Part shown: piece after piece, positions 12,256 to 14,932 of the stretch
Numbering within the stretch: the stretch's first letter is position 1
How the letters are laid out: the number at the start of each line of letters is the position of its first letter
Source of the DNA: Escherichia coli
Lineage (GTDB): Bacteria; Pseudomonadota; Gammaproteobacteria; Enterobacterales; Enterobacteriaceae
Assembly (NCBI RefSeq): GCF_013315695.1
Contig: NZ_CP054353.1
Strand: one strand, 5' to 3'
DNA: 64,000 nucleotides
Translations under genes and position numbers: made by a program
The notes under the pieces: model-generated
The model's database searches: none
The model's input: the letters and a program-made list of their open reading frames with translations, nothing else
Told to the model about the DNA's origin: nothing

Positions 12256-12327
12256 TTAATTAACTATAATGAACCAACTGCTTACGCGGCATTAACAATC
12301 GGCCGCCCGACAATACTGGAGATGAAT

Positions 12328-12948
12328 ATGAGCTATACCCTGCCATCCCTGCCGTATGCTTACGATGCCCTGGAACCGCACTTCGATAAGCAGACCATGG
12401 AAATCCACCACACCAAACACCATCAGACCTACGTCAACAACGCCAACGCGGCGCTGGAAAGCCTGCCAGAATTCGCTAACCTGCCGGTTGAAGAGCTGAT
12501 CACCAAACTGGACCAGCTGCCAGCAGACAAGAAAACCGTACTGCGCAACAACGCTGGCGGTCACGCTAACCACAGCCTGTTCTGGAAAGGTCTGAAAAAA
12601 GGCACCACCCTGCAGGGTGACCTGAAAGCGGCTATCGAACGTGACTTCGGCTCCGTTGATAACTTCAAAGCAGAATTTGAGAAAGCGGCAGCTTCCCGCT
12701 TTGGTTCCGGCTGGGCATGGCTGGTGCTGAAAGGCGATAAACTGGCGGTGGTTTCTACTGCTAACCAGGACTCCCCGCTGATGGGTGAAGCTATTTCTGG
12801 CGCTTCCGGCTTCCCGATTGTGGGCCTGGATGTGTGGGAACATGCTTACTACCTGAAATTCCAGAACCGCCGTCCGGACTACATCAAAGAGTTCTGGAAC
12901 GTGGTGAACTGGGACGAAGCAGCGGCACGTTTCGCGGCGAAAAAATAA
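12328..12948 (+). CDS. sodA: Manganese superoxide dismutase
   Basis: ORF 12322..12948; start at [36 protein letters not shown] for 206 aa. Confidence 0.95.
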
Positions 12949-13004
12949 TCATTTGCCGCCTGCTGCAATGAGGCGTTTACGTCGCATATCAGCTTAAAAA
13001 ATGA

Positions 13005-13031
13005 ACCATCGCCAACGGCGGTGGTTTTTTT
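13005..13031 (+). terminator. Rho-independent terminator downstream of sodA
   Basis: Inverted repeat accatcgcc / ggcggtggt followed by a T7 run. Confidence 0.65.
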
Positions 13032-13068
13032 GTGATCAATTTCAAAATAAAAACAATGATCCGATAAA

Positions 13069-13088
13069 AATAAAACAGTGTTTCAATT
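13069..13088 (+). promoter_or_regulatory. KdgR-operator-like palindrome upstream of kdgT
   Basis: aataaaacagtgtttcaatt matches the KdgR half-sites (AAAACA ... TGTTT) as remembered. Confidence 0.5.
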
Positions 13089-13207
13089 GATGTGGTTTTG
13101 ATCACTTTTATTGATCAAATGAATGTCTATCTTCGTTTCCATCAACACTGATGCTCCGTTGAGGAATGACGCATCAGCCCTTAAAAATATGCCGACAGGT
13201 GATGGAA

Positions 13208-14109
13208 ATGCAGATAAAACGCTCGATTGAGAAAATCCCGGGGGGGATGATGCTCGTCCCGCTATTCCTTGGCGCACTGTGCCACACCTTCTCGCCGGAG
13301 GCGGGGAAATATTTTGGATCATTCACCAACGGGATGATTACCGGTACGGTGCCCATTCTGGCGGTGTGGTTTTTTTGCATGGGGGCGTCAATAAAATTAA
13401 GCGCGACGGGAACGGTATTGCGTAAATCCGGTACGCTGGTGGTAACAAAAATTGCCGTCGCGTGGGTGGTTGCGGCAATTGCCTCGCGCATTATTCCGGA
13501 ACATGGTGTTGAAGTTGGATTCTTTGCCGGACTTTCAACGCTGGCGCATTTGTGTTGATGTCATTGGAGTCCGGGCCGCTCATGACGATGATTATTCTGG
13601 GCACTGCCGGGATTGCCTCGTTTGAACCGCATGTTTTCGTCGGCGCAGTATTACCGTTCCTGGTGGGCTTTGCCCTTGGGAACCTTGACCCTGAATTACG
13701 AGAATTTTTCAGCAAAGCGGTGCAGACGCTGATTCCATTCTTTGCCTTCGCGCTGGGCAATACCATTGATTTGACTGTAATTGCCCAGACAGGTTTGCTG
13801 GGGATCCTGTTGGGTGTGGCAGTAATTATCGTGACCGGTATTCCGTTGATTATCGCCGATAAATTGATTGGCGGTGGCGATGGCACTGCCGGAATTGCCG
13901 CTTCCAGTTCCGCAGGGGCCGCGGTAGCGACACCTGTGCTGATTGCAGAAATGGTGCCTGCGTTTAAACCGATGGCTCCGGCAGCAACTTCGCTGGTCGC
14001 GACGGCGGTCATTGTGACTTCGATTCTGGTGCCAATTCTTACCTCTATCTGGTCACGTAAAGTCAAAGCCAGAGCGGCGAAAATCGAAATTTTAGGTACG
14101 GTGAAATAA
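13208..14109 (+). pseudogene. kdgT: 2-keto-3-deoxygluconate permease gene kdgT, disrupted by an internal deletion with frameshift
   Basis: Track splits it into 13166..13558 and 13552..14109 in different frames; first part begins [13 protein letters not shown], second resumes at [12 protein letters not shown]; the span encodes about 300 codons against 327 aa for K-12 KdgT as I remember it. Confidence 0.7.
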
Positions 14110-14257
14110 ACCTGCTTCCTTAATCCCCACAGCCGGATGAACTAACGTTCGTCCGGTTTGCTATTGAGCTCCTGCCTGGATACATACCGCGAAAACAGCA
14201 CGCCTGACATAAAATAAATATGGTCTAATGGGGAAATTTCTCGTGGAGAGGGAACAG

Positions 14258-14932
14258 ATGCGATATCCGGTTGATGTATACACAGGCAAGATTCAGGCTT
14301 ATCCCGAAGGCAAACCCAGCGCAATTGCCAAAATCCAGGTTGATGGTGAGTTGATGCTGACGGAGCTGGGGCTGGAAGGTGACGAGCAGGCGGAGAAAAT
14401 GGTTCACGGCGGGCCAGACAGAGCGCTGTGTCATTATCCTCGTGAGCACTATCTCTACTGGGCGCGGGAATTTCCGGAACAGGCGGAGTTGTTTGTTGCG
14501 CCTGCGTTTGGTGAAAATCTCTCAACCGACGGTCTGACGGAAAGTAATGTTTATATGGGCGATATTTTCCGCTGGGGAGAGGCATTAATTCAGGTCAGCC
14601 AGCCGCGCTCGCCTTGCTATAAACTCAATTACCATTTTGATATCAGCGACATAGCGCAGTTGATGCAAAACACGGGTAAAGTGGGGTGGTTGTATAGCGT
14701 AATTGCACCAGGGTTGGTATCTGCTGATGCGCCACTGGAGTTGGTTTCCCGTGTCAGTGATGTGACCGTGCAGGAGGCTGCCGCCATCGCATGGCATATG
14801 CCGTTTGATGACGATCAGTATCACCGTTTACTCTCCGCCGCCGGGTTATCGAAAAGCTGGACGCGGACGATGCAAAAGCGCCGACTGAGCGGCAAGATCG
14901 AAGATTTTTCCCGCCGGTTGTGGGGAAAATAA
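14258..14932 (+). CDS. yiiM: MOSC-domain protein YiiM
   Basis: ORF 14228..14932; start at MRYPVDVYTGKIQAYPEGKP for 224 aa. Confidence 0.88.
   Translation: MRYPVDVYTGKIQAYPEGKPSAIAKIQVDGELMLTELGLEGDEQAEKMVHGGPDRALCHYPREHYLYWAREFPEQAELFVAPAFGENLSTDGLTESNVYMGDIFRWGEALIQVSQPRSPCYKLNYHFDISDIAQLMQNTGKVGWLYSVIAPGLVSADAPLELVSRVSDVTVQEAAAIAWHMPFDDDQYHRLLSAAGLSKSWTRTMQKRRLSGKIEDFSRRLWGK

Follow-up and report, generated by a model that had tools for sequence, protein, structure and literature searches.

A regulator binding site in front of a dead gene raises two questions: whether the site is what it seems to be, and whether its survival says anything about when the gene was lost. The case studied here is kdgT, a sugar-acid transporter gene of Escherichia coli, in a 64,000-nucleotide stretch of contig NZ_CP054353.1 (hereafter the window). 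The original prediction placed a retained KdgR-type operator upstream of a broken kdgT, added a second palindrome next to it, and took the retained operator as a sign of recent inactivation. From sequence comparison we consider it highly probable (roughly 0.88) that positions 13069-13087 are the normal KdgR operator of the kdgT promoter, still intact because the break, which occurred within one clone, is very recent.

A KdgR-type box in the sodA-kdgT spacer

The gene order in the window is rhaT (minus strand), sodA (plus strand, 12322-12948), kdgT (plus), yiiM (plus) and cpxA (minus). The spacer between sodA and kdgT is 259 bp long and holds the KdgR-type box. Its upstream part contains the intrinsic terminator of sodA (13003..13027, plus strand), an 11-pair stem followed by a T run, which bounds the kdgT control region on its upstream side; a GC stem and a T run are found there in every genus aligned. 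Following the K-12 annotation, the start codon of kdgT is the ATG at 13208, and the box lies 139 bp upstream of it.

The 20-mer singled out by the prediction, AATAAAACAGTGTTTCAATT (aataaaacagtgtttcaatt in lower case), is found at exactly 13069-13088. Its first 19 bases, AATAAAACAGTGTTTCAAT (13069..13087), form an imperfect palindrome in which 14 of 19 positions are self-complementary. As a search pattern for boxes we used AATRAAAYRnYRTTTYATT, which we take to be the KdgR consensus; the motif was defined by Rodionov in 2004. The box has one mismatch to this pattern; elsewhere in the 64 kb the minimum is four.

For scoring, KdgR matrices were built from real sites and not from a published matrix. 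K-12 DNA around reported KdgR/PlaR targets (~86 kb) was fetched and searched at ≤3 mismatches to the same assumed consensus. Every match in these ~86 kb is directly upstream of kdgK, kduI (two boxes), tabA or ygjV. For eda and yeeO, which are also reported KdgR/PlaR targets, no box was found at ≤3 mismatches in the fetched K-12 stretches, and both were excluded. The five boxes, with kdgT left out, make up the paralogue matrix. Under this matrix, which is not fully independent because its training boxes were chosen by the assumed consensus, the window box scores 27.8 bits, compared with 20.5-29.0 bits for the training boxes, and outscores four of the five. Elsewhere in the 64 kb no site exceeds 11.7 bits, and the best of 200 dinucleotide shuffles reaches 22.3 bits. 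A second matrix, made from orthologous boxes outside Escherichia, gives the window box 28.5 bits, and again 0 of 200 shuffles score as high.

A stricter KdgR consensus string, RWWGAAACGNCGTTTCAKKA, is printed in PMC8222616. The window box has four mismatches to it and is tied with four other window positions. The accepted K-12 boxes have 3-5 mismatches and so do no better than the window box. We therefore dropped this string as a discriminating consensus.

Conservation and natural variation of the box

Species-representative genomes were scanned with K-12 KdgT, which yielded 80 loci from many Enterobacterales genera. A box (≤3 mismatches, within 400 bp upstream of kdgT) is present in 72 of these 80 genomes, at a median distance of 139 bp. 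Across 14 aligned sequences from 8 genera the core AAA..GTTT.A is invariant, whereas the surrounding spacer has diverged. The same pattern holds at close range, where the half-site core AAAAC...GTTTC is constant in 9 of 9 aligned Escherichia sequences and the flanking bases vary. The predicted operator identity is thus borne out by the matrix score, the shuffles and the conservation, and on these measures 13069-13088 is a genuine KdgR-type box. It is also an ordinary one: the kdgT operator is already known, a textbook site of a long-known regulon.

The closest relative of the window box is naturally the kdgT box of K-12, which stands at the same locus, at the same 139 bp from the start codon and between the same conserved flanking blocks, and is identical at 18 of 19 bases. 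The two loci differ in that the window has T at 13079, a degenerate central position where K-12 has C, and in that the window carries an 82-bp frameshifting deletion downstream. The other E. coli boxes (kdgK, kduI twice, tabA/yjgK and ygjV) and the boxes of the Dickeya and Pectobacterium pectinolysis genes share with it a 17-19-bp AT-rich imperfect palindrome of the form AAAC-N5-GTTT. The window box is further from its coding start (139 bp) than the boxes of kdgK (67 bp) or tabA (16 bp).

Is the T at 13079 a first sign of decay? Alleles were counted with 35-mers centred on the variable base, for which the 28-base word of megablast forces inclusion of that base. Among 5426 complete E. coli genomes, T is found in 2143, nearly all of them with a full-length kdgT, and C in 2257; the remainder carry other variants. 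These include ...CATCGTTTC... in strain E24 and ...TTTCAGT in O157:H7, and B2 strains also vary. All sampled Escherichia box alleles score 23.1-27.8 bits, inside the range of the training boxes, with the window allele at the top. Both matrices favour T over C by about 1 bit; the string of PMC8222616 favours C. We considered T at 13079 as operator damage and rejected it, as its frequency is like that of the K-12 allele and both matrices give it a slightly higher score. The site is not a mutated form of the functional operators. Because the T allele is common and all alleles fall in the working score range, the operator is, by these counts and scores, undamaged and not peculiar to the pseudogene lineage. 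The counts also put on record the natural variation of the box (central T or C, ~40% each), with all variants inside the score range of accepted sites.

A single deletion in kdgT

That kdgT is a pseudogene in this DNA (13208..14109, plus strand) was correctly predicted. In comparison with K-12, 82 bp are missing between 13545 and 13546. The deletion shifts the frame after 113 native residues, and the shifted frame continues with HLC and a stop codon (116 codons). The remainder of the kdgT frame runs uninterrupted to the native stop codon, and 185 residues of the C-terminus are still encoded in the native frame by a GTG-started ORF (13552-14109). The two ends of the Pfam KdgT profile are accordingly matched by separate ORFs, 13166-13558 and 13552-14109, and profile positions 109-136 are missing. 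In the intact allele the deleted 82 bp are flanked by imperfect 8-bp direct repeats, GCTGGCGC and GCTGGGGC, and these repeats suggest replication slippage as the origin of the deletion.

The age of the inactivation

Of 5426 complete E. coli genomes, one has the deletion junction, CAACGCTGGCGCATTTGTG: that of strain MSB1_4I, in which the identical kdgT allele is annotated as 'frameshifted'. The nearest intact allele is that of strain MS 21-1. It has 0 substitutions relative to window positions 12649-14500 (1852 bp), and the 82-bp deletion is the sole difference between the two over this 1.85 kb. The adjacent 24.5 kb of the window match MSB1_4I at 100.0% identity, and equally OZ547117.1 and MS 21-1, both of which have an intact kdgT. 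The pseudogene thus shows one lesion without additional decay and is phylogenetically narrow in its distribution, as recent pseudogenes are. Because the junction is found in one of 5426 genomes and near-identical genomes carry an intact kdgT, we conclude from these comparisons that the kdgT break is clone-specific and very recent. From the broken kdgT one would predict that this clone, in a human-associated lineage of E. coli, has lost KDG uptake.

The original argument had reached the same date by another route, namely that a binding site kept in front of a pseudogene points to recent inactivation. The date stands and the argument does not. The window differs from K-12 at 7 of 259 spacer positions and at 12 of 902 coding positions. 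At 7 of 259, a neutral 19-mer is expected to collect ~0.5 changes over the full depth that separates the window from K-12, and retention of the box therefore has no power to date the pseudogene; a 19-bp site is nearly uninformative. A pseudogene cannot be dated by the survival of a short operator, whereas comparison with near-identical genomes can date it.

MSB1_4I is not identical to the source of the window. When window positions 14500-39000 are set against 5010659-5040497 of NZ_LR898874.1, MSB1_4I has ~5.3 kb of extra DNA, in which an ISEcp1 transposase is annotated and which is absent from the window. As this insertion is missing, the window comes from a close relative (a sister isolate) of MSB1_4I. 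The MSB1_4I genome (NZ_LR898874.1) has further annotated pseudogenes, among them flhB (internal stop) and yciW (frameshift), and several IS1 copies. A homologue of kdgT, with 87% identity, is carried by the 120-kb plasmid NZ_CP172870.1.

The tgatca pair downstream of the box

The second palindrome of the original prediction, tgatca-cttttat-tgatca, is indeed present, at 13099..13117, reaching past the 13100 at which the predicted feature ended. Its reading as a second palindromic operator fails. A pair of this kind is expected only 0.19 times in random sequence, even with one mismatch allowed. The second hexamer (13112..13117) is not conserved: it is polymorphic within E. coli, where position 13116 is C (TGATCA) in 1044 genomes, T (TGATTA) in 4139 and A (TGATAA) in ST131, and it is absent from other Escherichia species, which have unrelated bases there. 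The first hexamer (13099-13104) overlaps GATCAC at 13100-13105, and GATCACT is invariant across 8 genera. Because the second hexamer hangs on the variable base 13116 and the first belongs to the GATCAC element, the pair is, as far as the alignments tell, a single-base accident on one conserved element and not regulatory.

Four GATC (Dam) sites lie within 83 bp of this region (13034-13116), at 13034, 13058, 13100 and 13113. Three of the four are kept across genera, inside the elements GTGATC, TGATCC and GATCAC.

Conserved spacing in the kdgT control region

The 72 kdgT loci with a box were anchored on it and the spacing of the neighbouring elements was analysed. Upstream of the main box is an auxiliary, degenerate KdgR-like site, ATAAAAACAATGATCCGAT (13047..13065, plus strand), its centre 22 bp away from that of the main box. 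It has the second-best score in the window under the paralogue matrix, which alone (11.7 bits) is not significant. The best secondary match within 60 bp on either side of the box is at exactly -22 in 47 of the 72 genomes, and across the 72 loci the mean score is 2.6 at this offset vs -24.8 at the others. Tandem sites 18-22 bp apart are common in the IclR family, with this spacing in more than half of the orthologous groups surveyed (PMC8222616). The kdgT pair resembles the tandem IclR-family operators that are bound by tetramers (e.g. TtgV) in that its sites are 22 bp apart and on the same helix face. It differs from them in that the upstream partner is strongly degenerate in its right half (TGATCC, not TGTTTC) and in that cooperativity of KdgR is putative.

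On the other side of the box, 64 of 72 loci have GATCAC at +28 to +31, counted from where the box starts. Followed by T's, it corresponds to a CRP site's right half with the adjoining flank, and in the window it is contained in a candidate CRP site, TGTGGTTTTGATCACT (13091..13106, plus strand). The full 16-mer is found with ≤3 mismatches in 23 of 72 loci, its left half being poorly conserved, and it has two core mismatches to TGTGA-N6-TCACA, a level of match that occurs at chance frequency in the window. Another CRP-like site, TGTGATCAATTTCAAA (13031..13046, plus strand), is directly 3' of the sodA terminator and has one mismatch to TGTGA-N6-TCACA. Its GTGAT...TCA does not vary among the 14 sequences from 8 genera; at ≤2 mismatches it is found at the same offset in 13 of 72 loci, limited to Escherichia, Citrobacter and relatives. 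Across the window, matches to the CRP pattern number 30 vs 26.6 expected, which is not above chance. kdgT is listed as a CRP target by SELEX-chip (PMC3105977). Because the pattern counts equal chance, the CRP reading draws on the conservation and on this one SELEX paper.

Further downstream is a putative -10 hexamer, TATCTT (13128..13133, plus strand), of which T13128, A13129, T13130 and T13133 show little or no variation in the 14 sequences from 8 genera. The pattern TAnnnT at +57 to +59 from the box has 70 occurrences among the 72 loci. Placed 7 bp after the hexamer, transcription would start near 13140, and the centre of the downstream CRP-like site (13098.5) would then be at -41.5. Our literature searches returned no mapped kdgT transcription start. 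A sigma-70 scan of 12940-13260 found no full consensus promoter and no -35 element, as would be expected of an activator-dependent promoter. If the start is placed correctly, the arrangement is like that of class II CRP promoters: a half-site with a T-rich flank 41.5 bp from the start, no -35 element, and a repressor box that abuts the CRP site. It departs from them in the weak left half of the CRP site, and the layout itself is deduced from conserved spacing.

A possible mechanism of repression

These elements can be assembled into a working model. KdgR, a repressor of the IclR family that comes off its site in response to 2-keto-3-deoxygluconate, would bind 13069-13087 in this strain as elsewhere. 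The kdgT promoter would be CRP-dependent with class II geometry, with the GATCAC half-site at about -41.5, TATCTT as its -10 and a start near 13140. The main box would be centred near -62, adjoining the CRP-like site, and the degenerate partner would lie two helical turns (22 bp) beyond it on the upstream side. Repression by KdgR, which may bind as a dimer of dimers, would then work by blocking CRP and the alpha subunit of RNA polymerase and not by covering the -10. Antagonism between CRP and KdgR has been described at the pectinase genes of Dickeya. A box centred near -62 would be in an atypical position for steric repression, which counts against the mechanism. In the window, the intact operator, in the allele of ~40% of E. 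coli, would now control a dead kdgT: the 82-bp deletion, probably by slippage between the near-identical 8-bp repeats, broke the gene within one clone, and nothing else appears to have changed yet.

Unlike the other boxes of the regulon, the kdgT box has a fixed partner at -22 and GATCAC at about +30. It is possible, though we regard it as doubtful, that these elements make up a fixed composite kdgT module across Enterobacterales, with an IclR-type site at -22, a CRP half-site at about +30 and a -10 at +57 to +59, in which KdgR, as a dimer of dimers or jointly with PlaR, would act as an anti-activator of CRP and not as a simple roadblock. No description of such a composite architecture for kdgT was found in the literature examined. 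The conserved composite layout of the control region is the only material here that is even mildly new, and it is testable.

Alternative readings and the cognate regulator

Three readings of this stretch can be set aside with different degrees of firmness. The spacer is AT-rich, and the string RWWGAAACGNCGTTTCAKKA ties the box with four other window positions, so that a chance AT-rich palindrome might come to mind; given that no shuffle of 200 scores as high under either matrix, that 72 of 80 genomes, from many genera, have the box in the same place, and that the half-site core is constant in nine Escherichia sequences while the flanks vary, we regard this as almost certainly wrong. It is scarcely more probable that selection has preserved the operator since kdgT was lost, through read-through into yiiM, which follows kdgT on the same strand after ~150 bp, or through titration of KdgR. 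Retention is explained without selection by the 0 substitutions in 1.85 kb relative to the intact allele and by a deletion limited to one clone. The exact tgatca repeat at 13099-13117, improbable in shuffled sequence, could in principle be the site of a second regulator or, with four GATC sites in 83 bp (13034-13116) of which three are conserved across genera, a paired Dam-methylation switch. We consider this very unlikely: TGATCA as second hexamer belongs to the minority allele (1044 vs 4139 genomes), position 13116 is A in ST131 and the stretch is wholly different in other Escherichia species. The first hexamer is already accounted for by GATCAC at its fixed distance from the box and the -10-like element, and the conserved GATCs sit in the CRP-type GTGATC and GATCAC cores and in the TGATCC of the auxiliary site.

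The protein that binds the box is a more serious matter. Passages of PMC6958661 report that kdgT mRNA rises in a K-12 kdgR mutant and call kdgT a known KdgR target, and PMC6892915 agrees, with over-expression of kdgT in a strain that lost kdgR. The same passages of PMC6958661 list kdgT, with kdgK, kduI, eda, tabA, ygjV and yeeO, among the genomic SELEX targets of PlaR (YiaJ), the second IclR-family repressor that acts on plant-sugar-acid genes. PlaR is a different protein, and its box, ATnTGAAACnnnGTTCAnTT, has half-sites nearly identical to those of the KdgR box; the authors of PMC6958661 propose co-regulation. The window box could accordingly be mainly or additionally an operator of PlaR, shared with KdgR or competed for, and the auxiliary site at 13047-13065, with a GAAAC-like half followed by GATCC, could be the site that a second protein prefers. 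Set against this are the response of kdgT to loss of kdgR and the fact that the passages of PMC6958661 give no binding position for PlaR within the spacer. We give a share for PlaR a substantial chance, though below even; it is compatible with binding by KdgR and does not exclude it, and a normal KdgR operator remains the preferred reading.

The kdgR gene is outside the window. In MSB1_4I, the one complete genome that shares the deletion, it is annotated as intact. Among the 5426 E. coli genomes, kdgR matches are found in 5424, and in 5370 at least 80% of the gene is in one piece. From this annotation and these counts, the repressor KdgR is very probably still present to bind the orphan operator. 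About 50 E. coli genomes may carry a split or truncated kdgR.

A candidate hairpin in the kdgT leader

Between the putative promoter and the start codon, the leader at 13135-13209 has a minimum free energy of -25.2 kcal/mol (z = -3.3 vs shuffles). It contains a hairpin, CTGATGC...GCATCAG (13148..13177, plus strand), with some compensatory changes: in Citrobacter and Superficieibacter, 4 of 16 pairs are changed on both sides with pairing kept. A search of Rfam gave sub-threshold matches only. One of these, to the Hfq-binding RNA STnc150 at 13024-13217 (20.8 vs 60 bits, E = 0.02), was taken as chance. A further pairing, across the Shine-Dalgarno and start region, is possible between GUUUCCAUC (13135-13143) and GAUGGAAAU (13201-13209); a transcript beginning near 13140 would lack most of its 5' arm.
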